This document shows, in pieces, positions 23,392 through 61,396 of a DNA stretch of 64,000 nucleotides. This stretch comes from an uncultured Gammaproteobacteria bacterium. Its GTDB lineage: Bacteria > Patescibacteriota > Patescibacteriia > Magasanikbacterales > UBA922. Below the pieces are notes generated by a model, which did no database searches, was not told the DNA's origin, and saw nothing but the letters and a program-made list of their open reading frames with translations. Made by a program: the position numbers and the translations under genes. Numbering within the stretch: position 1 is the first letter of the stretch; the number at the start of each line of letters is the position of its first letter. Location: the NCBI GenBank assembly GCA_964597575.1, contig CAZQXB010000001.1, positions 842,892 through 906,891 on the forward strand, in the 5' to 3' direction.

Positions 23392-23396
23392 CTGCT

Positions 23397-27774: not shown

Positions 27775-27803
27775 ACCATACGGGCGACATAATAAAACAG
27801 AAA

Positions 27804-43444: not shown

Positions 43445-46400
43445 TTAGGTGTTGTTATGAATATCCACGATATCGGTTTCAATACTTCCATCACCAGTCG
43501 GACCAACTGGACGAATTTCATAGGTTCCTGTTGCTTGATTTCGAACAATGTTAAACACATGCCAGTAGTTCGCATTTGGATTTGAACTTGTACCTGCGAT
43601 ATTTCGAATTCTAAAGACACGGGGCGCATACACAGAACGAGCACTGTCTTGATCTTGCTGATATTCGTAGACCTCCACAATCAGACCTGGGTTTGCAACA
43701 TACCTCCCCATCGGCCGGACACTATCATCAACAAAATACTGGAACGGAGCACTCGTCTGAGCTTGACTCAGGTCGATTGTCAGTGCTTTGACAAATGTAT
43801 CCTCTAGCTGAATTTGTGGATGAACAAAGACGCGAGCCGTGCCGTCTGAAGTATTGAAGGTGGTACAGCCTGTTGACCACCAGTACGACTCATTCGGCCG
43901 GAGTGTCTGAAGGGAGATATTGTTGCAGAGATAATTTGTTCTTGACAAACGGGTTTGAGTATCCGCCACTGAAAAATCGATAATACGCCCAAAGACAGGA
44001 GAAAAATCATTATGATACAAGCGCCCCAAGAAACGCCCATCGTCCTCGGCACCAGACCAACGAAGAACGACACGGAAAACGTTTGGTGGTACCGCTGGAG
44101 AAAATACAAACTCACGAGTTACTTCCTGCTGTTCTCCATTTACAGGGAATGGAAATAAGGATCCTCGTCTCTGTGGCGTAAGCGGTTGACCAAATGCACG
44201 GCTGTAGCTCCCGATAAACATGCGATTAATATCAAGGTGGTACACGTCGGTACAAAGATTGTTGGTATTAATATTAAGCTGATCATTTAACCGAGCAGTA
44301 TTTGCAGGGTAGGCAAACACTGATCCTGGTTGTCTGAAACTAAAGAGGGCACTCACTTCTTCGGTTAACAAACGACTGCCTAAAAGGCCACGGAACGCCC
44401 AGGTTCGGAGAATGACACCTCCAGCAGAAGAAGACTCCTGGAGAACGAATCCTGCAGTAGACGAGGCACGAAGCATGCTCACCTCAGTTGACTGTCCCCA
44501 CGCATTCGCCCCACTTTGCGCATAATCAACGATAGGGTTAATTACGGCAATACGTGGATTTGCTCCACCCCCGGTAAAGTCGGCACAATCGACCAAACCA
44601 TCCCCATCATCATCAAGGCCATTCGTACAAATAGGATTTGTATTGTCGGTATAACGGCAGTTCGTTGCCTGACCTGGCGCACACTGCACTCGATTTGCCC
44701 CTGACGAACAAAGCGCATCCTGGCAGCTTGGCTGCGAAGAAGAACCGTTCACGCGGCACAAACCCTGCTGCGCGCTACATGTTTCAATAACTCCACAAAC
44801 CGTACAGTTATCTACGAGACGGCGGCAGTTATTTTGACAAGAAAACGCTCCTCGATTCGCCGTAGGAAGCGTTCCTCGGCTACAGGTAAGTGCAGGGCCG
44901 TTTGCAATAGTGCTCGTTGTTACACCCCCGGTCGAAAGAGTGTCGCATACTTCTCCAGCATCTCGCTGAACAATACCATCACCACAATATGTTATCGGAT
45001 CACGGGTAACTGTAGTACATTCTGCCGAACACAATGTTACTCTCTGACCATATGGTGGATTTTGCGGTACAAGGCCGTTCGCATCCGCCTCATCACACGT
45101 CTCTCCTAAATTACTCTGAACAATTCCATCACCACAGAATGGACCGGCATTTGGATTTGAAATTACAACATTCGTTCGACGGAAACAGAGGTTCGAACAC
45201 GAGTCTAAGTTATCGGTATTGCCGTCGTCACACTCTTCATGCGGCTCATTCACAAAACTATCCCCACAGTATCCTCCCGTAGCCTGACAATCAAACGAAC
45301 AACTTGCTCCCCGAAGCGGATGATAGGTTGGGCGGGCGGTGAGTACACATGAATCTCCAGAAGAGCACTGACTATCCTGATCACAGGCAGTAGCCGCAGC
45401 ACAGTATGTCGATCGAGTAAATCGTAAAAATTGGTTTAACCCTCGGAACAGTCCAATAATCTGATTTCCTGGAGCAAATTCAATTGTTCGTACAAATCCA
45501 TTATTATTTGGCGTGGAAACCACCACCCATCGCTCTCCTCCATTGTTTGTAGCCCAAGCAGCGTACCCTGCTTGTCCACTGAATCCTTGGTACAAAACGA
45601 TACGATCCAAAACAACTACAGTCTGTGCATCGAGGAGGGCAATAGCGCTCGGACCGGCAGAAGAAACAATTGCACGGTCAGGCGCCGGAAGATCAAGGGA
45701 AGTCCATGTTACACCGCTGTCTGTTGTACGAAAGACGCGACGAGATGCATCGGTTACCAAATACCCCAAATTTCTGTTTGCAAATACAAAGTCGACTTGC
45801 TCAGTTGCAGGATTTTCAGGCAACCGTTGCGCCACCCACGTTAACCCACCGTTGGTGGTACTGAAAAATCCTGCGGTTCCGTATGCAAAGCCTGTTTGCT
45901 GATCGATAAATTGTAATTTTGAAATCGAAGTATTTGCCGCAAGCGGTGCGTACGATTGCTGCGACCAAGTGTCACCAGCATTTTCTGTTCTCCACACATT
46001 TTCCCCTGTTCCAGCAACGTACACCATAGTTGGGGAAACCGCATGAACAGCCTGAAGCACCACTCCCGAAGTATTTGGAATTTCGCGAGTAGTCCAATTG
46101 GCGCCACCGTTACTCGTCCGCATTAAAATTGCATTCCGTGAACCTCCAGTCTGCGCTCCGACAGCAAACCCAACCTGCGCATTCAAGAAGGTGATACCGC
46201 GCAAAATGATGCCGGTTTCTTGACGACTCACGCTCCAGCCAAAACCTGAGAATCTCATAATCGACGCACGATTCTGCGCTGTGTCAGTCATAACCGCCCA
46301 CGCACTCTGTTCACCCAAAACCGAGAGAGATTGAGCACCAATAATTTCTCCAGGATTTGGGGTGAGAAGAGGAACTACCGTCACATCAAACCGAGGATCA

Positions 46401-49400
46401 CGACAGGATTGCTTGTCACAGAACCCTCTTTGGAACTGTGGTTGTGATTTCTCACAAAATTCAAGCGGAGCATTTGTCGCAGGGTCAACATCGATTACCA
46501 AGTTCGCTGCAACAGCAGCATCTTCGCCACATGCTAAATCTGACAACCCGGTACAACTCGCGTTACATCTTCCATACTGCTGCCCATTCACTCGGCCATC
46601 GTCACACACTTCTGGAGCTTCAATAACCCCATTACCGCAAAGGCCCGTTGCTCGGCACTGACCAAGCACAAGCCGGCACTCATTCGTACACTCAGTGGTG
46701 CGAATTTGCCCAGCCGAACAACCGTTCGTCGTAGTGCCTCGGCTATTCGCCGGATTATCACATTCTTCGCCTGGGTTAATAATTCCATTTCCGCAAACAC
46801 CTGCAGACGGACTTTGTGGGGTACCCACGCACCAACGCGTTACAGATAAACGATCAGTATCCAAAAGACCATCCACAATACCGGTTTCACCTGAAAAATA
46901 TTCAAGTGGAACATGGAGCTGGTAATTGGTGCCGTCGGCACGAACACTATATTCGTACATACTTGCCGAAGCTGGGCATTGAAATGTCGCCACATCAGGG
47001 CTCCAGCAAGTTTGAGGGTCAATCCCATCACACCCACTCCATGTGTTTAACGGGTCACTTGGGATAGCTCCACCAAGCGCCCCGGCGAGCGTACCACCCC
47101 AAGATGGCCAACGAGAATTGGTATATCCTGGAATATATGTCCCCGAATTAAGCACAGGAAAACGACCACCATTGAGAAGTGAGGCATTCAACGCTAAGTT
47201 CTGGAATGAGCTTGCATCCTGCAAACGATCCCAGTCACGAAGCATCTTCGTGCGTGCATTTGCACAGATACGATTTCCAGGAAGAGCACTGCACTGACTA
47301 TCAACGGAACAAGCGATATTACTCTGAAGATCTGGTGTTGAAATATCTTCCCGATCTGTTCCATTACCGACGGAACAGTACCCAACATCGCTCAAGTTAA
47401 TGTTGAAACGAATGGAGTTAACAAGAGAGGTGAAGACTCGTTTTGTATTATCAGAAGCATCTGCATTTACCGTAAAAAGATACACGAAACTTCCCACTTC
47501 ATTGCGCTCTGACTCATCATACTGATTAAGCGCATTAATGTAGTACGTATTTCCATCAGTGAGGGCTTCGTACCCATCAACAGTAACGGAACGCATGGTT
47601 GATGGAACTTCACCAAACTTCTCACGATACCACTGTCGAAGAGGACGGAGAGATGACACTGTTGGACCACCACTAGCGACCGGAACCGGCGGCACAACAG
47701 GAGCTGATCGAGTTAGGGTAAAACGAGTCGAGAAACCTTGTGCCTGCGTCCCTTCTTCCACCACAATAATTTCATACAAACTATCTGGAGCTGGCTGAAG
47801 AACTCTCTGAGGAATGGTGATATAAGCCGAACCATCATTTACGATGTTACCCGTGAGATCAATCTGACCATTAGTGTCATTTGAATAAGCGTAACGTCCT
47901 TGGTCGTCGAGAACAAGCAGAAGGAGACTCAGTCGCACCTGCTGACCTGGCTGACCACCTCTCCACTGAATAAGCACGGGTTCGCCGATTGGGAAATCTG
48001 ATCTGGTTGCAGCCGAGTCAACAAACCGAAGAGCTCCTCCGTCTGGAGTGACAGCGGGCGGAAGAGGAAGATTCGGAGCTGCTGGAGGTGGCGGTGGCGT
48101 CGCTGACCCACCTACGGCACGAGTCGTGTTGTTAAAAATCTGGAATCCAATAGCATCATCATTTTTTTCATTAAAGAAGAAAATACGACGCACAGAATCT
48201 CCAAATGGAGGAATAGGTGAAGTACCATTCGCACCTAAAATGCTTGGTCGCAAATATGGCAAGTCGTCTGTTATATCACCTGTTCTTCCGGCATCAGCGC
48301 AGTATCCGAATCGAACATTTCCGAAAATAGTATCACTACCGAGGGCAATACCTGGAATTGACTGGCCCGTAAATACACCGCCCGTGTAATCATCGTTGTT
48401 CGCGTTTCTTCCTCGCGAAACCCCATCTTCATACGGATAAATTCCACGCGGTGGCCACGGACGTTCACAGAAAAACGTGATTAATTCTGCAGTGTCAGAA
48501 AAACGTGGAAGAGTTGTGCCAGTAGCCGCCAAACGATCTTCTGTCACGCGAAGTTCAGCCACTAATGTTCCTGTTTCCCCTTGACCCAAGTTGCGAGAAC
48601 GGACCGTTGCCTGGTCTGACGCACCAGTATTTCCTGCGGCTGGAATTACAAACGCTGGGTGGGTTGATGGACCCCAGCTCCACACCCAATTATAAATTCC
48701 AGGAATTGGTGCGATGGCGCGGTTGTTCAATGTTCTCGCTGTCGCAATAAAATCGGTTGAAGTGTTTGGAGCTGTAAAAAGATATGATTCCGGTTCCACG
48801 GTCACAGACTCTACACGACACACATCTCCCGTTTGTGTACGGAACACCCAAGAACTTGCGGACGTACCGACGGAGTTTGTATCCGGGCGAATGCCTACCC
48901 CTCGAGTATTTTCTATACCATTTACCCCACCCTGAAGAAGGACGGCGTATGTAGTACCCGCATCAAGAAGTGAAGTAAGCTGCAAACGAACTCGCGTTTC
49001 TGTAACAACACCACTTGCGTCGGTTACCGGAGTGACGGTTGGAACAAATCGAATCTGCCCACCACACCAAGATCCTACGTTTATTTGATCCGGTCGAAGA
49101 GCCGAAGCAAATGCCTGCCCCTCAAGTAGTGCGCGGAAAAAATATCGAACACGATAAATCGTTCCACGGAAAAATCCTTCTGGTGGATTTTCGTACGCGA
49201 GTGTACCGCGGACCACAGTGGTCACATCATCGTTCGTCCCCTGACATGGCACTGCTGAGGCACCGACCGCATACCCTCGCGCAATCAAGATATTGTCTTG
49301 AAGTGATGCTTCATCAATTTCACCAGAAAGCGTAAATTCAATGAGGGTATTTCTACATGCCGCTTCAGACCCATTAAACCCGGTTCCGTCTGCAGGATAA

Positions 49401-52400
49401 GTAGAGGTACGCTCAGGACGAAGTTGGCAACATGAATTCGTACCAACCCCATATCGATTCAAAGCATTCCCACTATTTTGGGGGCAATTATTATATTGAT
49501 TCGCTTGTGGAGCATTATTTGCATACTCTTCAAAACCACATTGAAGTGCGTACGCACCACTGCCTCGTACCGAAAGGGTTCTCCCCCCGGTCGTTGCGAT
49601 GGCTTCGGCCTGGATTGTCGTTTCTTGTCGGCCGTCCGCAGGGATGTTTGTAGAAGCGCCAACTGCAGTCACAATCTGCGTTGCATTTTGACCAAGTGGT
49701 ACCCGTGTTCCAAGATCACCTGGTTGATACTCACACATTGCGTACTCCCCTATCCCTCGAACACCGTCTCCACACAATGAAGGTGTGCCGTACGAAATAT
49801 CTGAGCCACGCAAGGTACAATTCTCTGTACACCCTTCGGCGTTTCGATCACAACGGAATGTATTTGGAATAGTAGTTTCACTGCAAATATTTCCAAGTAA
49901 ACACCGTGAGGAGCATACACCAACATCTTGGACCGCAATAGGATTTGGTTCGCCATATACGCGAATCGTACCAGCGCTTCCAGGATTTCCTGTAACAATT
50001 TCACATGCCTCACCGCGATTAACAACCCCATCACCGCAAATACTCACTCCCCGATTGCGGCAAGCAGAAACAACCTCAGCCGAAGTACCCACAAGAGGTC
50101 GCGATTCACACCAACTTGCAGCAAGCGATGGTACACCGATATTCAAACACGTAGAGGTACAGCTTTCGTTCTCAACTGCCCCGTTTACTCCTGGTTCACA
50201 CTCTTCTCCTGGGGAAACAGTTCGATCACCACAAAACGGCGCACCGCTTGTTGCAATACCCGGAGTAAAGCGATCACTTGTCCCTGTTCTTAAACATCGT
50301 TCGTTACAAAAACGTACATCAGGGCTCCCTGTGGCCGGATCACACTCCTCACCACCTTCAACGGTGGCGTTACCACACTGGCCAGGTCCGGTACCACGAT
50401 TCGTATTTCCGGGTCGAAGACAGGTGAGGGTACAGGTTGTACCAACCACTTCTCCATTCGCTGCCACATCACAGTCTTCACCAACATCAATACGTCCGTT
50501 ACCACACATTGATCGGTTCGGCGCACCTACAGCCAACGTTGAACCGAGTGGAATACAGGTTGCGGTACACTGACTTCGTGGTGACCCAAGGCTTGAAAAG
50601 GTAGTAACACGGGCAACGGCCGGATCAGCACTTCCCCAGCGCCATCCAAATAACCAAGGGTTTAATTCTTGCCCCAAAGCACTGCATTGATCTGGGGAAC
50701 TTTGTGGAAGAGCAACATATCCGGTAGTTTCGCCAATAGTTGTTGCAGTAAAAGGAGTTGGCTCCACCTGAACACTCGCGGCCACACAGAATCCATCACT
50801 CGATTTTGTACGGAATCTCCAAGAGAACGGAGCGAGAGGATTTCCAGGATTGGTTGAACCGATGGCAGATTGCGCACGAATCGTATCCGCGACAGTAACA
50901 AGGTACCAGGTATTTTCAAGAAGTGGTGTTTGCGAAGGTGGAGCAAACCGATACAACATTGGGTTACCGCCCTCAACCACATCAAAAAAGATTTCTTCGG
51001 CTCTGACCGCACACAAAGCGTCGGCACAGCGATACATACGCACAGCGCCCGGATACGTATCTGGAAGCATCATTTGGTTAAATCGGATACCGATACCCGC
51101 ATTCGTACATGACTCACTACAATTTGGCCAAAAACCAACCACCCGTGGATCCCCAAGATCAACGGTAAGAGTACTTACCGCCGTAATAACTGGGGCACCT
51201 GGTTGGCTTGACACAGCTCGGATTTGAGCCGTATTCGGAGCACTGTTTGCAAGTGCCGTAACCGTTGCTCGTGAATCAGTAAAATCAGGAGGATCACGGT
51301 CAAGAAGAACTCGTGCATACGCATTTCCTGGGGCTGGCACTGACCAATTCCACCCTAAACCATCCGCACGAATAACAGTACACGCTTCATTCGGAGCACC
51401 CCACACATAGTAATAGAAAGGATGTGGCGGGCTAAGCACATTCGTCGTCACGCGAGGATAGCTTGGGTCCTGGAGCATCCCAAGCATGTTTGTCGTGTAT
51501 GTTGGAGGACGAATGAACGCATTCGCAATTTCACACCGACGACTCCCTGCTTGGAAGGTAAAGCAATAGGCAGTTCCTGCGCCACACGGACGAGTCGCCA
51601 AAATCGGTTCGTTTACCGTAACTTGTCGACTTAAAATTTCTCTTGTTTCGTTCGAACGGATACCCGACCCGAGTTCAACACGATACCACGTGTCTGCGGT
51701 AAGCACAGCTCCTGCACCACGTGGACGAGCAACGACATTCGGATTCTCATATCGGATATCGAATTGATCGGTAACATTCACCCGATTTGAACAGTTCGCA
51801 CTGGTGCCATTTCCACAAGTATAGATACGCGTATTCGCGACAACACTTGCCGGATCCATTTCCACAGTAAACCGGGCATTAATTTCCGCATTGATACACG
51901 CGGCTCCACGGAGAGTTTGAACATCTGGGGTTGGAGACGGCATGGTTGAAGAACCCTGTTCACAAAATTCGTCCACTTGTGGCAAACGACTTAATTGCCC
52001 AGTGGTAAAACGCCATACATATCCGGCATTCCGACTCTCTCCAGGACACGATTGATTTTCTGGGAGAAAACTTCCATCGGTGCAGCAACGAAGTCCAGCA
52101 GGAATCTGACTTTGCGGCAAGGCTCGGCAATCTTCTACGGTATAGGTCAAACTATTTGATAACTGACCACCTGAACCAACCCGAATTGGACCAGTTTGCA
52201 TCGTTACACCGTTTCTCTCAGGAATTGGGGTCAGAATCTGCGTCGCAGTAAGAATTTGGGCTTCAGGAGCACGAGTTGAGAGCCACGTTGTGACATCATT
52301 CGCCACAGCGCCGCGCGTCCAAAAATAGGTTGTCGCTGCTGCTGCAAAATTAACCCCGGTTAAAGTAAGACCTGGGCTTGCAGGAGCAAGTGGAGCTGGA

Positions 52401-54802
52401 CCACGTGCAGGGGAAATACGACAAAGACCAGGGCGAGGGGTACCGGCCTGAACAGTGAGGCGCGCCGTGTTAGCTAATTGAGTTTGAAGACCATTCGTCG
52501 TTCTGACCGTTACATACCACTGACCCGGAGCAAGAGTTGTAGGAACTTGAACCACAACACTCTCGGGAGTCCAGGTATCACCACACGCCGGAGGCAAAGT
52601 CACTTGTGCCGCCACACAGCCAGCGGGCATGTTTGGGGGTGCACAAACGAGGCTAATATCATTCGCAAAATAAACATTCCCTGTAGCTCCCCCGAATCCC
52701 CGACCAGCAAGTGTAATCAAACTCCCCGGGGTCGTGGTTTCAGGGTCAATCGCAGTAATAGAAGGCAGTGAAGCATCGTCCGGAGAAAGAATGGTAAACG
52801 GAACAGCATTACTTGAAACTCCATCGATAACTGCAGCCACAGAAACAACTCCGGGTCGGAGGCCGGCTGGTACGCGAGTATCAACACGTGCATCCGCCCA
52901 CGAAGTGACTGGTGCACTGGCAAGCCCGAAACGAAGCTCACGATTTGTGCCCCCTGAAAACTGCCCAATAGCACGGGCATCCGTTGAAGGAAGTCCGGCT
53001 GAAACACCAGCGCCGACTTCTACACGACATAAACGAGGACGATTGGTCGTATTTTTCAAAAACAAGCCGTTACGAGTACCCCCACGAGGACCACGACTAT
53101 CGATCGTGGTATCAGTAAGAGTATTATTATCCGCTCGAACGATACGAATCGCAGAAAAAGACCCTTGCGGCAAGGCCGCGTCTCCTGGGACTTCAACCAC
53201 GGTATATGTGTCAGTCCAAGTAACCGCTCCACCACACGTTGCAGGAGCGGCCGTAATCCATTCGGCACCAGCAATCGTACCACTATTATCACGATCAATT
53301 CCGAATTGAACTTGCCCTGGAGTTGTTCCAAAAAAACGACCACTAACCGTCACCCATGAACCGGCCGCGGCATCCCACGGATCAACATTCGTAATAAGCG
53401 GACTCGATACACACTGTCCTGAAACACACTGCCCAGATGCACATTGCCAATTTTGCGCACACTGCCCAACCCCTTGGCAGGAACCGCCAGCATCAACGTC
53501 CGTTTCGTCGCCATCTTGGACACCGTTACCACAATGCGCTGCCACGCTTACAAAAGTAGTACTTGCGGTTGCGCGATTTCCATCAATGTCATAGGCAGTC
53601 GCTGTAACAACATATCGCTCACCCGGACGAGTATTTGCGGCCAAAAATAAACGGTATGTGTATACGAATGGATCAAGAACTGTCGTTCCAGATCCACGCG
53701 CAATGGTTGGGCCACCAACCGAAACAATCGAGGCCGCTCGGCCTTCTTGACCAATATCAAGCCGAACGTACCCTGCACCCGTATTGTCGGTCATTGGTAC
53801 TGAAATTTCCACTTCACGATTCACGGGAAGTGGCTGATCATTAGCACGAACACCATCGACAGAAATACCACCGGGAATAACCGGAGCGGTAACATCGAGA
53901 GTGTTTGGCGTATTTACTCGAAACGTTGCTTCTCGTGGAAAGTTGCCACAGGCAACAGATTCTTGAATGCTTCCCCCACGAGCATCGACCACGGTATTGC
54001 GAACACTGACACGGTATTCCCCTGAAGGCATACACCCATTTGTGCCGGCACACACCGTAGCACCCGTATAGGTAGCTTCAAGCACTTGGTTCGCTGGATC
54101 AGCAAAACGGAAAGAGAAGTCAGTCACGGGTTCGCCGTCTCGCGTAATGGTAACCACCTGATTCGCAGCGGTTCGAACACCACGGCTAAACACCACACGA
54201 ATAGTGGCGTTATTCATGTTTGTTGTTTCTGTGCGTGGGGTGATACTCTGCACGATAAAATTATCACGGCCGCAGCACCATGACGGATTTGAGGAGCAAT
54301 TAAGCGATGGCCCGGTTCGCCCACACAATTCGTCGTACCGTGGGTCATTTGCTAACGCAAGATCAGCACAACTTGCAAGAGGATCACTTTGCCCCAAACC
54401 CGTTGCTCCCTGAAGCCGAGTTAACACGAAACGGCTGATGGCAAAAGCAGAAAGAACAATCACAAGACCAATTGCCCCGTTCATAAGGATTTTACGCGCG
54501 TCCTCCACCTTACCCTCATCCCCTCCTGCGGTCATGTACGTAATACCACCATAGATCACGATACCAACTGCAATAACCGAAAGAAGGCCGAGAAAAATAT
54601 TAATAATCCGAGCCACGATGACACGGATATCGGTTCCGGCTAAATTACTCGCACCGTCAAATGCCGTTACCCCAAGCGCATCATTTGCTTCTTGCGCAAA
54701 TGTGATCTGAGGAAGAAAAACAAAAACGGCTGCTAGGAAAATGAAAAAGGAAATAGCGTGCAGGGCGCGGGCTCGAGAAAAAAAAGACATGAGGCGGGAC
54801 AT
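43445..54802 (-). CDS. Giant extracellular protein of about 3785 aa. It has an N-terminal signal peptide plus two-TM module, many Myxococcus-type Cys-rich repeats (CGNG/CGDG ... GEECD ... C), Ig-like/beta-rich regions and a C-terminal block of BNR/Asp-box repeats (S-x-D-x-G-x-T-W).
   Basis: Single uninterrupted ORF. Start set at MSRLMSFF. At least 11 CG[ND]G-x(5-9)-GE[EA]CD repeats. Five BNR motifs (TSNGGANWTT, TENAGDTWSQ, TTNGGLTWVA, TTDSGVTWTS, TNNGGERWVV). Confidence 0.7.
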   Translation of the reverse strand: MSRLMSFFSRARALHAISFFIFLAAVFVFLPQITFAQEANDALGVTAFDGASNLAGTDIRVIVARIINIFLGLLSVIAVGIVIYGGITYMTAGGDEGKVEDARKILMNGAIGLVIVLSAFAISRFVLTRLQGATGLGQSDPLASCADLALANDPRYDELCGRTGPSLNCSSNPSWCCGRDNFIVQSITPRTETTNMNNATIRVVFSRGVRTAANQVVTITRDGEPVTDFSFRFADPANQVLEATYTGATVCAGTNGCMPSGEYRVSVRNTVVDARGGSIQESVACGNFPREATFRVNTPNTLDVTAPVIPGGISVDGVRANDQPLPVNREVEISVPMTDNTGAGYVRLDIGQEGRAASIVSVGGPTIARGSGTTVLDPFVYTYRLFLAANTRPGERYVVTATAYDIDGNRATASTTFVSVAAHCGNGVQDGDETDVDAGGSCQGVGQCAQNWQCASGQCVSGQCVSSPLITNVDPWDAAAGSWVTVSGRFFGTTPGQVQFGIDRDNSGTIAGAEWITAAPATCGGAVTWTDTYTVVEVPGDAALPQGSFSAIRIVRADNNTLTDTTIDSRGPRGGTRNGLFLKNTTNRPRLCRVEVGAGVSAGLPSTDARAIGQFSGGTNRELRFGLASAPVTSWADARVDTRVPAGLRPGVVSVAAVIDGVSSNAVPFTILSPDDASLPSITAIDPETTTPGSLITLAGRGFGGATGNVYFANDISLVCAPPNMPAGCVAAQVTLPPACGDTWTPESVVVQVPTTLAPGQWYVTVRTTNGLQTQLANTARLTVQAGTPRPGLCRISPARGPAPLAPASPGLTLTGVNFAAAATTYFWTRGAVANDVTTWLSTRAPEAQILTATQILTPIPERNGVTMQTGPIRVGSGGQLSNSLTYTVEDCRALPQSQIPAGLRCCTDGSFLPENQSCPGESRNAGYVWRFTTGQLSRLPQVDEFCEQGSSTMPSPTPDVQTLRGAACINAEINARFTVEMDPASVVANTRIYTCGNGTSANCSNRVNVTDQFDIRYENPNVVARPRGAGAVLTADTWYRVELGSGIRSNETREILSRQVTVNEPILATRPCGAGTAYCFTFQAGSRRCEIANAFIRPPTYTTNMLGMLQDPSYPRVTTNVLSPPHPFYYYVWGAPNEACTVIRADGLGWNWSVPAPGNAYARVLLDRDPPDFTDSRATVTALANSAPNTAQIRAVSSQPGAPVITAVSTLTVDLGDPRVVGFWPNCSESCTNAGIGIRFNQMMLPDTYPGAVRMYRCADALCAVRAEEIFFDVVEGGNPMLYRFAPPSQTPLLENTWYLVTVADTIRAQSAIGSTNPGNPLAPFSWRFRTKSSDGFCVAASVQVEPTPFTATTIGETTGYVALPQSSPDQCSALGQELNPWLFGWRWGSADPAVARVTTFSSLGSPRSQCTATCIPLGSTLAVGAPNRSMCGNGRIDVGEDCDVAANGEVVGTTCTLTCLRPGNTNRGTGPGQCGNATVEGGEECDPATGSPDVRFCNERCLRTGTSDRFTPGIATSGAPFCGDRTVSPGEECEPGVNGAVENESCTSTCLNIGVPSLAASWCESRPLVGTSAEVVSACRNRGVSICGDGVVNRGEACEIVTGNPGSAGTIRVYGEPNPIAVQDVGVCSSRCLLGNICSETTIPNTFRCDRNAEGCTENCTLRGSDISYGTPSLCGDGVRGIGEYAMCEYQPGDLGTRVPLGQNATQIVTAVGASTNIPADGRQETTIQAEAIATTGGRTLSVRGSGAYALQCGFEEYANNAPQANQYNNCPQNSGNALNRYGVGTNSCCQLRPERTSTYPADGTGFNGSEAACRNTLIEFTLSGEIDEASLQDNILIARGYAVGASAVPCQGTNDDVTTVVRGTLAYENPPEGFFRGTIYRVRYFFRALLEGQAFASALRPDQINVGSWCGGQIRFVPTVTPVTDASGVVTETRVRLQLTSLLDAGTTYAVLLQGGVNGIENTRGVGIRPDTNSVGTSASSWVFRTQTGDVCRVESVTVEPESYLFTAPNTSTDFIATARTLNNRAIAPIPGIYNWVWSWGPSTHPAFVIPAAGNTGASDQATVRSRNLGQGETGTLVAELRVTEDRLAATGTTLPRFSDTAELITFFCERPWPPRGIYPYEDGVSRGRNANNDDYTGGVFTGQSIPGIALGSDTIFGNVRFGYCADAGRTGDITDDLPYLRPSILGANGTSPIPPFGDSVRRIFFFNEKNDDAIGFQIFNNTTRAVGGSATPPPPPAAPNLPLPPAVTPDGGALRFVDSAATRSDFPIGEPVLIQWRGGQPGQQVRLSLLLLVLDDQGRYAYSNDTNGQIDLTGNIVNDGSAYITIPQRVLQPAPDSLYEIIVVEEGTQAQGFSTRFTLTRSAPVVPPVPVASGGPTVSSLRPLRQWYREKFGEVPSTMRSVTVDGYEALTDGNTYYINALNQYDESERNEVGSFVYLFTVNADASDNTKRVFTSLVNSIRFNINLSDVGYCSVGNGTDREDISTPDLQSNIACSVDSQCSALPGNRICANARTKMLRDWDRLQDASSFQNLALNASLLNGGRFPVLNSGTYIPGYTNSRWPSWGGTLAGALGGAIPSDPLNTWSGCDGIDPQTCWSPDVATFQCPASASMYEYSVRADGTNYQLHVPLEYFSGETGIVDGLLDTDRLSVTRWCVGTPQSPSAGVCGNGIINPGEECDNPANSRGTTTNGCSAGQIRTTECTNECRLVLGQCRATGLCGNGVIEAPEVCDDGRVNGQQYGRCNASCTGLSDLACGEDAAVAANLVIDVDPATNAPLEFCEKSQPQFQRGFCDKQSCRDPRFDVTVVPLLTPNPGEIIGAQSLSVLGEQSAWAVMTDTAQNRASIMRFSGFGWSVSRQETGIILRGITFLNAQVGFAVGAQTGGSRNAILMRTSNGGANWTTREIPNTSGVVLQAVHAVSPTMVYVAGTGENVWRTENAGDTWSQQSYAPLAANTSISKLQFIDQQTGFAYGTAGFFSTTNGGLTWVAQRLPENPATEQVDFVFANRNLGYLVTDASRRVFRTTDSGVTWTSLDLPAPDRAIVSSAGPSAIALLDAQTVVVLDRIVLYQGFSGQAGYAAWATNNGGERWVVVSTPNNNGFVRTIEFAPGNQIIGLFRGLNQFLRFTRSTYCAAATACDQDSQCSSGDSCVLTARPTYHPLRGASCSFDCQATGGYCGDSFVNEPHEECDDGNTDNLDSCSNLCFRRTNVVISNPNAGPFCGDGIVQSNLGETCDEADANGLVPQNPPYGQRVTLCSAECTTVTRDPITYCGDGIVQRDAGEVCDTLSTGGVTTSTIANGPALTCSRGTLPTANRGAFSCQNNCRRLVDNCTVCGVIETCSAQQGLCRVNGSSSQPSCQDALCSSGANRVQCAPGQATNCRYTDNTNPICTNGLDDDGDGLVDCADFTGGGANPRIAVINPIVDYAQSGANAWGQSTEVSMLRASSTAGFVLQESSSAGGVILRTWAFRGLLGSRLLTEEVSALFSFRQPGSVFAYPANTARLNDQLNINTNNLCTDVYHLDINRMFIGSYSRAFGQPLTPQRRGSLFPFPVNGEQQEVTREFVFSPAVPPNVFRVVLRWSGAEDDGRFLGRLYHNDFSPVFGRIIDFSVADTQTRLSRTNYLCNNISLQTLRPNESYWWSTGCTTFNTSDGTARVFVHPQIQLEDTFVKALTIDLSQAQTSAPFQYFVDDSVRPMGRYVANPGLIVEVYEYQQDQDSARSVYAPRVFRIRNIAGTSSNPNANYWHVFNIVRNQATGTYEIRPVGPTGDGSIETDIVDIHNNT

Positions 54803-54818
54803 ATGGTAAAACAAGGGT

Positions 54819-56918
54819 CTATCGAACTCCAACCGGACTAATTGCCGGTCTCTGTAAAACAGAAATACATGCAGGAATATCTGCTTGTACTCGCAAATTT
54901 TGACCCCCTTCTTGCAGCTGGGTCGTCTGAATGCATCCGGTATCTTGATCCACATTCGTCTGAGGCAATACCGGTGCACAGTTAGTTGAACGAACCACTA
55001 CTCCGTCAGCATTTTCCTCGTAATCACACATGGTAGGAAGTCCAGGAGAATTTGCGATTGGTCCACGACCGGGGTAAAAACAATTCTGGTTTGCCCCGCG
55101 AACACTACTTGGAACACGGACAAAGTAGTAGAACGGCTGTCCATTTGGACCGAACATTCGATGACGAAGTGTTACACGCGTAGAGAGAATACCGAGTGCG
55201 TCTGAAACTGACTCTGCTATTGGAGCAACCCAAGGAGCCTCGATGCCAGCTGGTGCAGGGTGTTCAGTAAGGCCAATATCAAGCAGGGTCGAAGGCCACA
55301 TAGCGCCCGCAAACGTCATTTCCGTTGGAGCATCACTTTGTACCGCTTCTTCGTCAATCGCAGGGCGAACTTCTCGAATATACGGCACACTCCGATCAAT
55401 AAGCGGCTCTACTTCAAAACTCCACCAAAAGTTATCAGGCGCCTGTTCTGTTGCACTTGCCCGGAGACTGGTTACGATTGACGGCTTATGAGGGTCTGCG
55501 AGACGACCATCACCCGGAAAAACTCCATTTCCATTTCTCGCTCCGCTACTGCTATCAAGGGCATTCCCGGCCATATCCATAACCCCACTAAATGGTACGG
55601 CCTCAAAACTATTACCAATAACATCTGCGGTACGAATAAGAACCGTAAGTGGGTTTGCACAAGCAGCATTGCTGTCATCGGTACAAATGGTTGGCAAACA
55701 ATACATGGCATCACCGCAACTATTGCGGCCACACGGCTCACTTGGGATAAATTCAACTGACTGATATCCATTCGATACGCGCCATTCTCCAGATGGCATC
55801 ACCCCATTCGCTGCGCTTGATCCAAACACAATATGGGTAAATACACCGGTTTGCCCCTGCACCACTGTTGGATCCATGGCCTCATTAAACTGCACCTGTA
55901 CAATGGTATTGCGAGCAATATCTGAAGCGTGATTCGGATAAATTTGTGTAACGCGTGGCGGAATGGTGTCGAGTTCAGTATTAGTTTCAAAATTCCAGCT
56001 ATAGCGCTGCGCACGCTCATTCGCAAAGATACTCGCACTTCTATTTTGCACCTGAATACCAGTAAGCAAATCAACAGTGTAGCGTACAGCATCTGTTTCA
56101 TTCCCCAAAAGTTCGAGTGGGCGAAAAAGTACCGTTCGAACGGTTCCGTCTCCGGCATAGCTGAGAATTGCCGCAAGCTCCACCCCAGATGGAGTACCTG
56201 AGGCGGTTAAACGAACTGCGGCCGTGGCTCGATCACAATCAAGACTCCAGTCCATAGGGCGGGCAGCAGGGGTAACACAGTCACCGAAAATACCGTTTCC
56301 ATTTCTATCGTCAGCGATACTGCCAGGGTAAACAGCCTCACGAAAGGTAACTGAAATACGACTATTTCGTGGGACATCACGCTGATTTCGGAACGGATAA
56401 TGATCGCGCACAGCACGCCCAAGAGCCCCACTCGCAAAAAAGGTGTCGCCTGTATTTCCTTGAGCAACAAACGCACCAGAGCCTGTTCCTGTTGCTCCGG
56501 CGAAACGAGATAAAATAAATCGAGTAATCCCCCAAGCTGACATGATAATAATGAGCCCAATGATGGCATTGGTAATAATCCTTCGACCTTCAGCAACAGC
56601 ATCTTCATTTCCATTAGAAAAGAGAATCTTCCCCCCTGCGTATAAAATAAGCCCAACCGTAATAATTCCAAGTAACGTTAAGAAAATATTAATAATCCGC
56701 AAAGCAATCACCCGAATGTCGGTTCCAGCAAGTGGCAGGGCATTATCAAGCGCCGTTACGCCAAGGGCGTCTGTATTGTCAGGAACATTCTGAGCAAAAC
56801 TAACCGTCAAATCAAAGGCTCCAAAAAAGCTAGCAACAAAAAAGACTGCCACAAGAAGTACCCCGAGGGTATGTGCAGTCTTCTTTGAGAATATATATTG
56901 TGTGAACCCCGGAAGCAT
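54819..56918 (-). CDS. Large surface protein (699 aa) with the same N-terminal signal peptide plus two-TM module as the giant protein. Paralogous upstream partner.
   Basis: N-termini align: ...ALGVTA[LF]D ... AGTDIRVI ... RIINIF ... YGG / ...NA.IGL.I..SA..I.RF.L.R.AGATG.G. Confidence 0.6.
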   Translation of the reverse strand: MLPGFTQYIFSKKTAHTLGVLLVAVFFVASFFGAFDLTVSFAQNVPDNTDALGVTALDNALPLAGTDIRVIALRIINIFLTLLGIITVGLILYAGGKILFSNGNEDAVAEGRRIITNAIIGLIIIMSAWGITRFILSRFAGATGTGSGAFVAQGNTGDTFFASGALGRAVRDHYPFRNQRDVPRNSRISVTFREAVYPGSIADDRNGNGIFGDCVTPAARPMDWSLDCDRATAAVRLTASGTPSGVELAAILSYAGDGTVRTVLFRPLELLGNETDAVRYTVDLLTGIQVQNRSASIFANERAQRYSWNFETNTELDTIPPRVTQIYPNHASDIARNTIVQVQFNEAMDPTVVQGQTGVFTHIVFGSSAANGVMPSGEWRVSNGYQSVEFIPSEPCGRNSCGDAMYCLPTICTDDSNAACANPLTVLIRTADVIGNSFEAVPFSGVMDMAGNALDSSSGARNGNGVFPGDGRLADPHKPSIVTSLRASATEQAPDNFWWSFEVEPLIDRSVPYIREVRPAIDEEAVQSDAPTEMTFAGAMWPSTLLDIGLTEHPAPAGIEAPWVAPIAESVSDALGILSTRVTLRHRMFGPNGQPFYYFVRVPSSVRGANQNCFYPGRGPIANSPGLPTMCDYEENADGVVVRSTNCAPVLPQTNVDQDTGCIQTTQLQEGGQNLRVQADIPACISVLQRPAISPVGVR

Positions 56919-59176: not shown

Positions 59177-59908
59177 TTATTCAGATGTTGTGGTTTCGTA
59201 ACTTGGTGTCGTAAAAATACCGGCTTTCGAAAATGGCCACCCACGGAACCAGGCGCGACCAACAATACTTTGGCGATCGATAGGGCCGAACCCTCGAGAA
59301 TCAAAACTTTCATCTCGATTATCTCCCATAACAAAGTACTGAAGATCAGTTAAAACAAAGTTTTTGTCGGTTCTAGGAGTTGGTTCTGCCAAGTAGGTTT
59401 CCTGAAGGACAAAGCCTTGAGGAAACTCTGAATTGTAGATAATAATTTGCCCTTCTTTGATGGAAACCCGTTCACCCGGAAGACCGATGACACGTTTCAG
59501 GTAATGCTCAGTCGGGTTGACCGGAGACACAATGACAACCACCTCACCTCGCTGTACGTTTTCCTGATGCTGCAAGGTGCGCAATCGGTAGGTAAGCTTA
59601 TCGATAATCAAGTACTCATTTTCATGAAAGTTTGGTTCCATTGACTTACCCTTCACATAAAAAGGTTTGAAGAGGAACGTACGCACAAGACCAATGGTAA
59701 TCCCTGCCAACACCACAATTTTAATCACCTCAAGAAAAAAAAGGCCAAGAGACGAAAAAAACGAAGTGTCAGACGAGCCCGGCGGCGGCGTGGGAGGGGT
59801 ACCAACTGGTGCGAAAGGCTGATTTTCCACAAAAAATTGGCTAAAATAAGAAAAAAGTATTGGTACTATAGCAGGAAAATAGGGGTGTGTCAATGTAAGA
59901 AGAAGCAA
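59177..59908 (-). CDS. lepB: Signal peptidase I.
   Basis: GKSMEP (catalytic Ser box) and GDNRDESFDSRGFG box E. Confidence 0.75.
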   Translation of the reverse strand: MLLLTLTHPYFPAIVPILFSYFSQFFVENQPFAPVGTPPTPPPGSSDTSFFSSLGLFFLEVIKIVVLAGITIGLVRTFLFKPFYVKGKSMEPNFHENEYLIIDKLTYRLRTLQHQENVQRGEVVVIVSPVNPTEHYLKRVIGLPGERVSIKEGQIIIYNSEFPQGFVLQETYLAEPTPRTDKNFVLTDLQYFVMGDNRDESFDSRGFGPIDRQSIVGRAWFRGWPFSKAGIFTTPSYETTTSE

Positions 59909-59980
59909 CGTATTTTTAGTGGAAACTTACAATTCTTGCGGCGTGGAGTATACTCACTATGTACTCTAAAACGCTTTTTT

Positions 59981-61057
59981 ATGAAAAGAATACTTTTACT
60001 CACCCTTCTCGCAATCCTCCTTCTCCCCTATCGCACACTTGCAACGAGCGAGGCGACAACCACAGACAGGGCACGAATGAGAAATGCTCCATCAACCATA
60101 AATACCGCTACGCTGCTCGTGATACCAAAAGGCGCAGCGGTGACTGTTTTTGAAGAAACAGATGGATGGTCGCGACTCTCATACGGAAATAAAGAAGGGT
60201 GGACCGCGAGTTGGCTTTTAAAGCCAACGATAGCAGTCACCCCTCAGACACCAAGTACTGCCACCCTAAATGAACATGGACAATACATAAGTGCTGCTCG
60301 AGTTCGAAGTGGAGCATCACTCTCAGGTGCGATTGTTACTACCCTCTCGAAAGGAACCGGAGTCGACATTCTTGAAGAAGTTTCTGGATGGTACCGCGTT
60401 CGGACGACAGCAGGCGTCGAGGGTTTTACCGCCACATGGCTTATTACAAAAATACCGGCCTCTCCACCTCCAGAACCAACCCCGCCTCCACCAACACCGA
60501 TATTACCCAGAGCTACACCCCAACCCCAAGTAATAGATGCCAGTGTTCAGCAAGTAGGGGTTGTACCAAGTGATGTTGACCTTACACAACTGAGTCAGTA
60601 TTGGTTAGAAAAAGTAAATTCTCTCCGACGAGAAAAAGGGCTCCGTGAACTTGTGCTCGATCAACGCTTCGTGAATACTGCGAGTGAGTATGCCGGGTAT
60701 ATGGGAACAACAGGGGCAAAAAACCACGAACGAGCAGATGGAAAAACCATGCACCAATGGATTGACAGCCAAGGCCTCGCTTTTACGAAGCGCTATAGTG
60801 CCGGTGGTTGGCAGACCAATTATTTTAGCGAAAATATTTCTTGGGGATATGCTTCGGGAAACACTGAAGCCGTGAAAAAAGTACTCGATGATACCATGGA
60901 CATGTACTTGGCCGAGGCTTCGTATAATGGCGCACATTATCGCACAACGTATCACCCGGATTGGAATGTTCTTGGTGTAGGATTTTATTTTAAAGACGAG
61001 GGGGATGGACGGTACCAGGTGTTTTGCGTGTTTCATTATGGAAGTCTGACGCTTTAG
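59981..61057 (+). CDS. Secreted protein with two SH3b domains, a Pro-rich linker and a C-terminal CAP/SCP (YkwD-like) domain.
   Basis: Signal peptide MKRILLLTLLAILLLPYRTLA. Two SH3b-like modules. C-terminal YkwD-like segment. Confidence 0.5.
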   Translation: MKRILLLTLLAILLLPYRTLATSEATTTDRARMRNAPSTINTATLLVIPKGAAVTVFEETDGWSRLSYGNKEGWTASWLLKPTIAVTPQTPSTATLNEHGQYISAARVRSGASLSGAIVTTLSKGTGVDILEEVSGWYRVRTTAGVEGFTATWLITKIPASPPPEPTPPPPTPILPRATPQPQVIDASVQQVGVVPSDVDLTQLSQYWLEKVNSLRREKGLRELVLDQRFVNTASEYAGYMGTTGAKNHERADGKTMHQWIDSQGLAFTKRYSAGGWQTNYFSENISWGYASGNTEAVKKVLDDTMDMYLAEASYNGAHYRTTYHPDWNVLGVGFYFKDEGDGRYQVFCVFHYGSLTL

Positions 61058-61072
61058 GGCGTGGATCGGAAT

Positions 61073-61190
61073 CTCACTCGTCGCTTCGCTCCTCTTGGGA
61101 AAGGGTTTCCACCCCTTCCCAACCTTCCCCCAACTGAAGTGAGAACCTTCCGGTTCTCGAACCCTCCCCCGGTTCGACTCCATCAATCCC
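61073..61190 (-). repeat. Copy 3 of the structured repeat (minus orientation). Its outer end GGTTCGACTCCATC is identical to the T-arm 3' half of the adjacent tRNA-Ile, but on the opposite strand.
   Basis: Alignment with copies 1 and 2. Track ORF 61061..61294 is only a translation of this repeat. Confidence 0.65.
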
Positions 61191-61203
61191 AACACACGAA
61201 TAC

Positions 61204-61232
61204 AAAAACAGACGCGCGATGCGTCTGTTTTT
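61204..61232. terminator. Bidirectional-type hairpin terminator (CAGACGC-gcgat-GCGTCTG flanked by A/T runs) downstream of tRNA-Ile.
   Basis: Read directly. Confidence 0.6.
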
Positions 61233-61239
61233 GTATTCG

Positions 61240-61313
61240 TGGGCGTGGATGGAGTCGAACCATCGACCTTTACATTATCAGTGTAACGCTCTAACCAACT
61301 GAGCTACACGCCC
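61240..61313 (-). tRNA. tRNA-Ile (GAT).
   Basis: Cloverleaf folded by hand: acceptor GGGCGTG/CACGCCC, anticodon loop CTGATAA, T-arm GATGGTTCGACTCCATC. Confidence 0.85.
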
Positions 61314-61322
61314 ATGTCCCCG

Positions 61323-61396
61323 TGGGTCCGAGAAGAGTCGAACTTCTGACCTCCACAATGTCAATGTGGCGCTCTAACCAACTGAGCTACGAACCC
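61323..61396 (-). tRNA. tRNA-Val (GAC).
   Basis: Cloverleaf folded by hand: acceptor GGGTTCG/CGGACCC (one G-U), anticodon loop TTGACAT, T-arm AGAAGTTCGACTCTTCT. Confidence 0.8.

Follow-up and report, generated by a model that had tools for sequence, protein, structure and literature searches.

Why should a repeat that lies just downstream of a transfer RNA (tRNA) gene begin with the reverse complement of that gene's own T-arm? The question is raised by a stretch of 64,000 nucleotides from contig CAZQXB010000001.1 (assembly GCA_964597575.1, positions 842,892 to 906,891), placed by GTDB in the Magasanikbacterales of the Patescibacteriota; this whole stretch is referred to here as the window. 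It holds three copies of a repeat of about 113 nt: one after the transfer-messenger RNA (tmRNA) gene ssrA (copy 1), one at 28799-28918 (copy 2), and one after tRNA-Ile on the minus strand (copy 3). A first-pass annotation, made from the letters of the sequence, had pointed to the T-arm complement at copy 3 and had proposed that the repeat's terminus was copied from the neighboring tRNA or was kept by selection for pairing with it. Our analysis leads us to lean towards a different description, in which each repeat is part of a gene-less T-loop insertion cassette of about 180 bp, found in Magasanikbacteria-like Patescibacteria, that carries an imported palindrome, perhaps a folded recombination site.

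The evidence begins at copy 3. On the plus strand, positions 61171-61184 read GGTTCGACTCCATC. The T-arm of tRNA-Ile, on the minus strand at 61248-61261, has exactly the same sequence in inverted orientation, and this is the only other occurrence of the 14-mer in the window even when up to two mismatches are allowed. Because an exact 14-mer is expected only about 5e-4 times in 2 x 64 kb, chance is excluded as the source of the match. On the tRNA strand the matched nucleotides comprise G52-G53, the T-loop TTCGACT (61259-61253), and the 3' T-stem CCATC (61252-61248). Direct reading bears out the first-pass annotation both on this identity and on the way the repeat goes on, as AATCCCA against CACGCCCA in the tRNA. 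The annotation had also placed a hairpin terminator between the two copies, at 61204-61232; a hairpin is present, but that interval is only its central part, the real structure (T1) running from 61197 to 61239 with a 19-bp stem (61197-61215 / 61221-61239) and a 5-nt loop. The two T-arm copies do flank this terminator as an inverted repeat, as had been claimed, and the interval 61165-61267 folds into a single hairpin of -40.5 kcal/mol, compared with -14.2 +/- 2.5 kcal/mol for shuffled sequences (z = -10.4). The same geometry had been described at ssrA and is found there on inspection: GCCGAGAATCGAACT (10936-10950) is complementary, without a mismatch, to the tmRNA T-arm (10865-10879), and a terminator at 10888-10923 lies between them. 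The parts of copy 3 and of its host operon are as follows, with the basis of each assignment in parentheses.

61239/61240-61313, minus strand: tRNA-Ile(GAT) (ARAGORN; Rfam tRNA, 78 bits; sequence).
61264-61260, minus strand: 5' strand of the T-stem of tRNA-Ile; 61247-61241, 3' strand of its acceptor stem; 61240, A73 (sequence).
61322-61396, minus strand: tRNA-Val(GAC), the upstream gene in the same operon as tRNA-Ile (ARAGORN, Rfam).
61448-61420: promoter of the tRNA-Val/tRNA-Ile operon, TTGACA-17-TATACT.
61074-61256, minus strand: whole cassette of copy 3, 183 bp, starting at G57 of the T-loop and ending with the final A of GAGTGA (attL/attR alignments).
61240-61256, minus strand: tRNA 3' end borne by the element (t, copy A), GACT + CCATC + CACGCCC + A (identity with the displaced copy starts at R57).
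61197-61239, no strand: T1 terminator hairpin, lying between an A-tract and a T-tract (sequence, inverted repeat, fold).
61185-61196, no strand: 12-nt spacer, a degenerate complement of the acceptor strand (sequence, fold).
61171-61184, plus strand: inverted T-arm copy (t'), GGTTCGACTCCATC on the plus strand and GATGGAGTCGAACC on the tRNA strand (exact match, census).
61072-61184, minus strand: folded domain, 113 nt (covariance model R1, 121.8 bits).
61177-61171 / 61163-61157, minus strand: helix hp0 of the folded domain.
61158-61141, minus strand: helix hpA, with a GGAA loop.
61141-61132 / 61085-61075, minus strand: helix P1.
61120-61097, minus strand: helix hpB.
61057-61073, minus strand: displaced native 3' end of tRNA-Ile (copy B, on the attR side), GATTCCGATCCACGCCC (attL/attR alignment, sequence).

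An exact 10-nt direct repeat, ATCCACGCCC, occurs at 61057-61066 and again at 61241-61250, and the displaced tRNA-Ile end abuts the stop codon of a convergent SH3/CAP gene (59837-61057, plus strand). In folded copy 3 the spacer faces the 8-nt acceptor strand, which produces an 8 x 12 internal loop; this geometry is also present in copy 1 and in the tRNA-Ile cassette of a related genome (L004).

The same layout was found 12 times, in the window and in related, Magasanikbacteria-like Patescibacteria, at tmRNA, tRNA-Ile, tRNA-Asp, tRNA-Pro and tRNA-Phe genes and at one tRNA-like gene. It is shown by window copies 1-3, L001, L002, L004, L006, L012, L013 (twice), the tRNA-Asp cassette of L019, and L022. 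The extra copies were found by pattern scans and by look-ups of neighboring proteins. A first sequence pattern scanned over the genome collection gave no match, and a second gave nine genome matches, four of which were chance matches in the coding DNA of unrelated bacteria. Four scans of viral contigs did not find the cassette, and literature searches found no account of such an arrangement. Two loci, L001 and L002, come from the same metagenome, with the cassette at a tRNA-like gene and at a tRNA-Asp remnant, respectively. The sources of the others are listed below (MAG, metagenome-assembled genome).

L004 (= L007), CAZYEQ01 MAG: cassette in tRNA-Ile.
L006 (= L019 = L020), CAZYEQ01 MAG: cassette in tmRNA.
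L013, CAZYEQ01 MAG: cassettes in tRNA-Pro and tRNA-Phe.
L019, CAZYEQ01 MAG: cassette in tRNA-Asp.
L012, Magasanikbacteria GW2011_GWA2_56_11: cassette in tRNA-Asp.
L022, a Logan assembly: diverged cassette in tmRNA.

The CAZYEQ01 MAG (L006, L007, L010, L013) is titled 'uncultured Gammaproteobacteria bacterium', a label that looks wrong. Identical contigs, of Patescibacteria type, occur in the JACCDG/JACCDT metagenomes (L007 = L004, L010 = L002), and the contigs of the MAG have Magasanikbacteria-like SmpB and histidyl-tRNA synthetase (HisRS) neighborhoods; the organism is of the same type as that of the window, which by its HisRS homologues groups with the Patescibacteria, near Candidatus Magasanikbacteria. 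At L001 (about 3100-3180, minus strand), the cassette follows a 71-nt tRNA-like sequence with a tRNA-Phe-type T-arm, whose acceptor stem GTCATTG/CAATGGC pairs; neither ARAGORN nor Rfam calls a tRNA there.

On the tRNA-sense strand the order of parts is the tRNA gene up to C56, a new 3' end (t), T1, a short spacer, the inverted end (t'), a hairpin domain of about 100 nt, the tail GAGTGA, and finally a direct copy of the native tRNA end. The inverted end covers the T-loop at minimum and usually the 3' T-stem also, and in L002, L004, L006, L012, L013 and L022 a second, native terminator (T0) follows the displaced copy. Alignment of the two flanks (attL and attR) gives identity from R57 of the T-loop to the end of the gene or 1-4 nt beyond it. 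Directly before this identity stands the constant tail ...GACGAGTGA, which takes the place of everything up to position 56. At position 57, where tRNAs have G or A, the copy on the tail side follows its tRNA in 8 of 8 aligned attL/attR pairs, and L002 agrees by eye. Direct repeats of 10-19 nt are present in eight copies, starting in the T-loop and stopping at or just past the end of the gene. The insertion junction lies between C56 and R57, with the native tRNA end displaced to the far side. The element itself brings T-loop nucleotides 57-60, the 3' T-stem, the acceptor strand and the discriminator, followed by an intrinsic terminator of its own, and the host gene therefore stays intact; tRNA-Ile, tmRNA, tRNA-Asp, tRNA-Pro and tRNA-Phe are all called as intact genes by ARAGORN and Rfam. 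The last 17 nt of these tRNA genes, together with their terminators, are imported DNA. In the list of open reading frames (ORFs), the 178-183-bp inserts at tRNA-Ile and tmRNA contain no credible ORF, and they encode no integrase. The genes that flank the cassette vary from locus to locus.

How closely does the inverted end follow its neighbor? A mini-census took in 14 genes, all the tRNA and tmRNA genes of the window and of the relatives retrieved. The seven genes with a cassette have the complement of their own T-arm 40-58 nt downstream, five of them as exact runs of 15, 14, 13, 12 and 11 nt and the remaining two as 12/14 (L004) and 13/15 (L006) matches. At the seven genes that lack a cassette the complement reaches 6-10 nt only, and the longest of these values (9-10 nt) both belong to tRNA-Val, where they are explained by the complement of the adjacent tRNA-Ile. 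The expectation that tRNA genes in general would be followed by their own T-arm complement is consequently narrowed to cassette genes (7/7), as the seven repeat-free genes show no more than 10 nt. In a cross-matrix, the downstream regions match their own gene and have a low match to the others. Further cassettes agree: 13/13 at L001, 11/11 at the tRNA-Asp of L019, and 10/10 on the T-loop of the L022 tmRNA. At three tmRNA loci the T-loops TTCGATT, TTCAAAT and TTCGAAT are accompanied by the inverted copies AATCGAA, CTTGAA and ATTCGAA, which vary in step. In the seven census genes and the three further cassettes, the end of the repeat is specific to its neighbor and complementary to the T-arm, and this part of the first-pass proposal stands. 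The notion of the repeat as a separate neighbor of the tRNA does not, for the attL/attR alignments place the paired part of the tRNA inside the same insert.

The history of the tRNA-Ile sequences offers a view of how the match arose. At tRNA-Ile, the present gene (GACT) and the inverted copy (AGTC) agree with each other, and the displaced copy reads GATT in the window as well as in L004. The cassette-free tRNA-Ile of a more distant relative, L005, has GATT in the same half of the T-loop, and the displaced copy therefore looks native. This single nucleotide position is suggestive of a palindrome, composed of tRNA end, terminator and inverted copy, that was imported as one piece; the T-arm and the inverted copy would then match because both belong to it. 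T1 is similar at different tRNA loci, with 77% identity between L004 (tRNA-Ile) and L012 (tRNA-Asp, different genome) and 86% between L001 and the tRNA-Phe copy of L013, over a background of 50-65%. This similarity indicates that the palindrome travels with the cassette and is not made locally. Folded as DNA, the tRNA end, T1 and inverted end form one hairpin with z from -7.6 to -12 in six copies. Decay of the inverted copy is uneven, in that the T-arm part is perfect (15/15 in copy 1, 14/14 in copy 3) and the adjacent 8-9 nt are scrambled and 4 nt longer.

The second component of the cassette, the folded domain, has a consensus structure of four helices: hp0, in which the T-loop complement CGAAC pairs with GTTTG, hpA, a two-part closing helix P1, and hpB. 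The joints between the helices are purine-rich, reading GGGGGAAGGTT and AAGAGGAG in copy 3, with GGGGGA(A/T)GGTT and AAGAGGAG as the conserved form. Helix hpA occurs in the compensatory variants GGGAACC/GGTTCCC, GAGAACC/GGTTCTC, GAAAACC/GGTTTTC and GGAAACC/GGTTTCC, has loops of GGAA, GTAA and GGGA (GNRA types) as well as GGTA and GATA, and is swapped for longer unrelated hairpins in copy 2, L002 and L022. Helix hpB is replaced by GGGAAAACC/GGTTTTCCC in the tRNA-Phe copy, and P1 is altered on both strands in L004. In a model-based alignment, whose fit to the model flatters the pairing figures, 93% of cells are paired and eight pairs are changed on both sides; 0 of 500 shuffles reach the observed values, and sliding the partners by 1-3 columns reduces pairing to 34-61%. 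The tRNA-sense strand has about 35 G-U cells, where the opposite strand would have A-C mismatches, and the sense strand folds better by 6-17 kcal/mol in 9 of 9 copies tested. Between the window and its CAZYEQ01 orthologues the domain is 81-85% identical; the corresponding values are 77% for the HisRS proteins of these genomes, 76% for the tmRNA gene, 64% for ordinary intergenic DNA, and 62-63% for T1 plus spacer. Because of this covariation, the sense-only G-U pairs, the better fold of the sense strand and the high identity, the domain appears, under the model, to be selected as a folded single strand of tRNA-sense polarity.

No Rfam 15 family matches the domain in either repeat region of the window, the best sub-threshold hit being ar14 with 18 bits against a cut-off of 58.8, and nothing was found by Rfam on L001 and L002; the passing hits in the window are tRNA, tmRNA and LOOT only. 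A known RNA family was accordingly rejected as an identity for the domain, with nothing relevant in gathering-threshold and E-value Rfam searches. A small ORF after the Shine-Dalgarno-like AAGAGGAG was dropped since it is not conserved, as was a CsrA-type sponge, whose GGA motifs in loops are not conserved across copies. Scaffold identity among the copies is flat at about 80%, with paralogues at 85% and orthologues at 81%; concerted evolution of the copies within a genome was considered, and with a flat identity matrix no claim for it is made. If neither the mirror copy nor the domain plays a role in targeting, the domain is at the least an undescribed conserved non-coding RNA motif.

The other two copies in the window raise the question of whether a neighboring recombinase could be the enzyme of the cassette. 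Their features, and those of the region between tRNA-Asp and copy 2, are these.

10870-11047, plus strand: cassette of copy 1, 178 bp, in the T-loop of tmRNA (tmRNA gene, 10494-10887/9).
10888-10923, plus strand: T1 of copy 1; 10924-10935, spacer; 10936-10950, t' (15/15); 10937-11049, folded domain.
11048-11065, plus strand: displaced tmRNA end of copy 1, CTCGGCAT...
28744-28918, plus strand: copy 2, with T1 at 28744-28787, t' at 28800-28812 and the folded domain at 28799-28918.
16238-16312, plus strand: tRNA-Asp(GTC), original host gene of copy 2 (unsplit counterpart in L019).
16313-28743, no strand: low-GC island (31-43% GC) between the tRNA-Asp end and T1 of copy 2.
16273-17931, minus strand: large serine recombinase, 552 aa, whose 3' end overlaps the last 40 nt of tRNA-Asp (16238-16312, plus strand).

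Copy 2 is without an adjacent tRNA because the island, 12.4 kb in length, was inserted later between the two and now separates them; in its unsplit counterpart in L019, the cassette directly follows tRNA-Asp and there is no island. Three homologues of the recombinase from other Patescibacteria (L015, L016, L017; 52-63% identical) overlap tRNA-Asp likewise, and the conserved sequence of the recombinase islands starts right after the tRNA-Asp end, so that they look like a tRNA-Asp-specific serine-integrase island family. Since homologous islands occur without the cassette and their junction lies after the tRNA end, the island is a separate, later arrival with a different junction, and it is not the missing enzyme of the cassette. 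The inverted end of copy 2 matches the tRNA-Asp T-arm at 10/12 positions and that of its L019 counterpart at 11/11, a hint from one sequence comparison that proximity to the tRNA may matter for the match.

Two larger groupings of the copies were rejected. In one of them, copy 2 would mark the right border of the island and the mini-cassettes would have arisen from the island by deletion; three islands lack the cassette, the junction is another one, and L019 is free of the island. The repeats could also have been the ends of one large element, copies 1 and 3 being inverted and 50 kb apart and copies 1 and 2 lying as direct repeats around low-GC DNA; each copy has its own displaced tRNA end.

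Several further features were noted. The sequence TTATAATCCCnTCCCGTCGGTTCCGC is common to the window (28718-28743) and L002 (1573-1607), stands immediately before T1 in both, resembles a diverged tRNA-Asp 3' end and holds a TATAAT box; we read it as the putative right end (P arm) of the serine-recombinase island. A full-length Rfam LOOT RNA (78.6 bits) lies inside the island at 20756-20883 on the plus strand, just upstream of the ORF at 20780-21613 or overlapping its start. An SH3_3-domain protein is encoded beside copy 2 (29239-30486, plus strand) and another beside copy 3 (59837-61057, plus strand), and one of the two has a CAP domain as well. L004 lacks the SH3/CAP gene at its tRNA-Ile locus, and in L003 it adjoins another serine-recombinase island; the gene may be cargo delivered at these sites.

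Occupied and empty sites bear on the age of the insertions. The tmRNA and tRNA-Ile cassettes are common to the window genome and the CAZYEQ01 genome, and the tmRNA cassette of L022 is much more diverged, with the same native terminator as L006. Cassette-free sites were found at tRNA-Ile in L005 and at tmRNA in L012 and L016, with no occupied and empty pair within one population. In L016, which is syntenic, the tmRNA gene abuts IF3, and the one trace there is a scar-like stretch akin to the 3' arm of T1. This stretch, GTTTTATATTTTGTATGCG at 8395-8414 on the minus strand, is similar to the T1 3' arm plus spacer of L006 and is followed by bases that recall the displaced tmRNA end; the whole would fit deletion of a former cassette. 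A second inverted T-arm that lacks a body follows T0 at two loci, as GAGATTTGAACT in L006 (4525-4536; 12 nt exact to tmRNA) and as CGGACGGGACTCGAAC in L012 (about 2598-2613, minus strand; 16 nt exact to tRNA-Asp), which suggests remnants of older cassette layers. By these sequence comparisons, the cassette family appears to show gain, loss and replacement, and no sign of present-day movement was seen.

If the units are T-loop insertion cassettes that import a palindrome, then a small circular or single-stranded element would recombine with the tRNA T-loop, its enzyme being supplied in trans. The attachment region of such an element would read, after the tail, RANN + tRNA end + terminator + inverted tRNA end, and the junction of a circle would join GAGTGA to GACTCCATCC...T1. 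Our guess is that the palindrome folds in single-stranded DNA or RNA and so rebuilds a double-stranded T-arm with an unpaired acceptor region, which would be 8 x 12 in copies 1, 3 and L004, and that this serves as the recombinase site. Exchange of a single strand would leave the second arm just inside the element, as seen. The folded domain might then be an RNA or single-strand module needed for spread or maintenance of the cassette, which is likewise a guess.

Several observations weigh against this interpretation. No recombinase is linked to the cassette, the sole one nearby belonging to the tRNA-Asp-specific serine family that inserts after the tRNA end, and no cassette lies within 10 kb of the three homologous recombinase islands. 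Neither an excised circle nor an empty-site allele in a single population was seen, nor a copy in a phage or plasmid, and the four viral scans were empty. Since the tmRNA and tRNA-Ile insertions are shared at only 77% HisRS identity, the cassettes may be old and immobile. The unpaired 8 x 12 acceptor region is absent in the tRNA-Pro and tRNA-Phe copies, which are near-perfect palindromes, and GNRA-type loops and G-U pairs point to RNA and not to a DNA hairpin. For an RNA, in turn, no sigma-70-type promoter stands before the domain, and a terminator lies between the domain and the tRNA promoter. Finally, the interpretation leaves unaccounted for how one family acquired matched sense and antisense copies of six tRNA ends.

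The cassette can be compared with several known systems. Integration at tRNA genes is the commonest route of island gain in bacteria and is thought to need an integrase with its target fixed by protein specificity. Williams, in 2002, is said to have defined sublocation classes of genomic islands in the 3' part of tRNA and tmRNA genes. In Dehalococcoides, tandem serine-recombinase islands (DsiB) insert mid tmRNA T-loop and leave 20-bp direct repeats (PMC3146451). Like tRNA and tmRNA islands, the cassette brings a replacement 3' end, has a direct repeat of 10-19 nt to mark its far boundary, and takes part in the stacking of elements at one gene, the tRNA-Asp of the window having both a cassette and a serine-recombinase island. 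Unlike them, it is 180 bp long with no integrase or other gene, it has a second, inverted tRNA end across a terminator together with a conserved folded domain of about 100 nt, and a single cassette family, whose domains are about 80% identical, is found at six or more kinds of tRNA-type gene. That elements insert into the T-loop of tRNA and tmRNA genes is known; what is unusual here is a miniature, gene-less unit with a mirror copy of its target and an undescribed folded domain, at no fewer than six genes.

The cassette resembles cis-mobilizable elements (CIMEs) and other non-autonomous elements in being small and gene-less, with att-like repeats, several copies per genome, and an enzyme that presumably comes from elsewhere. 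In contrast to CIMEs, no parent element with the ends of the cassette was found, and its interior has RNA-type covariation, which is not seen in decayed remnants. It is not a miniature inverted-repeat transposable element: it has no terminal inverted repeats (RANN + tRNA end at one side, GAGTGA at the other), and its flanking repeat, between 10 and 19 nt long, is not a target duplication of fixed length but matches the tRNA end in every case. With the attP(+) of CTX phage and the attC of integrons it shares an imperfect palindrome that, folded as a hairpin, restores the chromosomal target in duplex form, a duplex center that is unpaired in three cassette copies, and a second arm just inside the element after insertion. 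It differs in its target, which is the T-loop and not dif or attI, in having no GTTRRRY or dif-like boxes, and in the tRNA-Pro and tRNA-Phe cassettes, which are without an unpaired center; no tyrosine recombinase, such as Xer or IntI, adjoins any cassette copy in the neighborhoods covered. Single-strandedness of the cassette we infer only from the G-T/G-U asymmetry elsewhere in it, and the resemblance to CTX-phage attP and integron attC would be one of principle only. Like the bridge RNA of IS110 and the guides of TnpB and IscB, the cassette would be a structured non-coding module, and it contains sequence that matches its own insertion target. Unlike these systems, it has no adjacent DEDD recombinase or nuclease gene, its match is a terminal one of 10-17 nt instead of split guides in an internal loop, and it restores the target at the occupied site, which would be intolerable for the guide of a TnpB or IscB homing nuclease.

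A bolder version of the mobile-element idea is that the cassette is a self-contained, re-targetable unit, with its target present in sense and in antisense around a hairpin beside the scaffold, and that this target is read by nucleic-acid pairing, through a folded att site or a guide RNA, and not by protein preference. Pairing-based choice of target would explain how one family of scaffolds, about 80% identical, came to sit at tmRNA, tRNA-Ile, tRNA-Asp, tRNA-Pro and tRNA-Phe; we nevertheless regard it as unlikely.

We give the same low standing to a host-retained small RNA, which would ride on tRNA operons through read-through of T1. The stem of t' and T-arm, which including T1 measures 35-40 bp, would be cut, for example by RNase III, so that the inverted copy would act as a processing signal whose cleavage frees the small RNA and discards the read-through tRNA. 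Such a role would suit the persistence of the tmRNA and tRNA-Ile orthologues at 77% HisRS identity, compensatory changes such as GGGAACC/GGTTCCC versus GAAAACC/GGTTTTC in hpA, a domain with no promoter of its own behind a very stable long hairpin, and a T-stem part of t' that is intact beside the tRNA and degraded in copy 2, which is 12.4 kb from it. It leaves unexplained the direct repeat of the tRNA end and the T-loop junction, which both show arrival by insertion. Moreover, T1 has the features of an efficient terminator, no function for the RNA suggests itself, L022 has its hairpins replaced by unrelated ones, and L016 has lost the unit with no obvious compensation.

Somewhat more doubtful is a guide-type RNA read from the tRNA-sense strand and composed of t', the scaffold, the sense tRNA end and a terminator (T0 when integrated, T1 in the circle). 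Its two ends, both derived from the target, would each pair with a different strand of the tRNA gene, one to either side of the T-loop crossover, and would direct a recombinase there as the target-binding loop of the IS110 bridge RNA does. The domain is RNA-like (covariation, strand-specific G-U pairs, GNRA-like loops) and better conserved than the tmRNA gene, it has a target complement 5' and a target copy plus terminator 3', and the target-derived parts vary with the tRNA around a scaffold that stays about 80% identical. On the other hand, none of the copies contains or adjoins a recombinase gene, no promoter and no Rfam match was found, and the complement is a single 5' stretch of 10-17 nt and not a set of paired guides in an internal loop; a functional tRNA end is needed in any case, and the 3' 'guide' may be just that. 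A TnpB-type guide RNA, with the scaffold plus flanking target as guide and the T-loop as adjacent motif, was rejected, because the occupied site restores the same target sequence and the guide would be self-targeting.

We rate lower again the view that the inverted copy is a passive by-product of fold-back (template-switch) synthesis at the terminator palindrome during insertion or repair of the cassette, decaying ever since and of no role. The palindrome is centered on the terminator loop, the tRNA-Pro and tRNA-Phe copies are near-complete palindromes and in the copies that are shared, and presumably older, the acceptor part has degraded, and L006 and L012 each have a second, body-less inverted T-arm after the native terminator, all as such an origin would lead one to expect. 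Passive decay, however, is hard to square with a T-arm part that is perfect next to a scrambled acceptor part, with an 8 x 12 geometry that recurs at two genes, and with a T-loop complement that forms helix hp0 of the conserved domain, and the T1 similarities across tRNA loci indicate that the palindrome moves with the cassette.

The weakest candidate, an antisense RNA running through the repeat (on the plus strand at copy 3) to end in a tRNA-like T-arm/acceptor motif at a shared bidirectional terminator, as the first-pass annotation had envisaged, we dismiss as most improbable: T1 has an A-tract and a T-tract and could terminate both ways, and the plus-strand repeat does end in GGTTCGACTCCATC followed by an acceptor-like run, but the 5' T-stem partner is missing (CCCGG, not GATGG), so that no T-arm can form, the roughly 35 G-U cells exist on the sense strand only and become A-C mismatches in the helices of this strand, which folds worse by 6-17 kcal/mol (9/9), and no promoter was found on that strand, nor anything tRNA-like by ARAGORN or Rfam. 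The missing 5' T-stem and the absence of an ARAGORN or Rfam call also led us to reject a tRNA fragment or pseudogene on the plus strand.

What remains is a gene-less unit of 180 bp that shows the full footprint of insertion at six tRNA-type genes and leaves each of the target genes functional. Should the mirror copy or the domain help to choose or process the target, the cassette would be a compact, sequence-programmed insertion system; with targeting by pairing, this would amount to a new form of programmable site-specific insertion, at work in bacteria whose genomes are very small. The cassette would also be a useful marker of T-loop insertion in bacteria of the candidate phyla radiation, whose mobile elements are poorly known.

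Some minor observations concern the surroundings of ssrA and the rest of the window. The predicted tmRNA tags (window 10494-10887, L006, L016, L022) end in ...FAPVLA, ...FAPALA or ...YPALA, not in the usual ...ALAA, and the resume codon chosen by ARAGORN varies among the relatives. The interval between copy 1 and infC (11050-14300) holds a 236-aa ORF that matches nothing in Pfam, along with a phosphoribosyltransferase-like and an ATP-grasp ORF, and includes a stretch of 57% GC at 12-13 kb. In syntenic L016 the tmRNA gene directly abuts infC, and in L019 one unknown gene and a 5-FTHF cyclo-ligase gene lie between them; more DNA has therefore accreted at ssrA in the window. Positions 1-7000, and especially 934-1236, form a block that stands out by a GC content of 57-67%, where the genome has about 47%. 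At 934-1236 a tandem repeat with a 21-nt period (at least 11 units) lies within a long ORF, and long ORFs overlap on both strands; the block is probably foreign DNA or a gene for a repeat protein. At 43445-54979, on the minus strand, there is an ORF of 3844 aa, the syntenic gene of which in L005 has weak T4SS_pilin, Big_5 and BNR hits.

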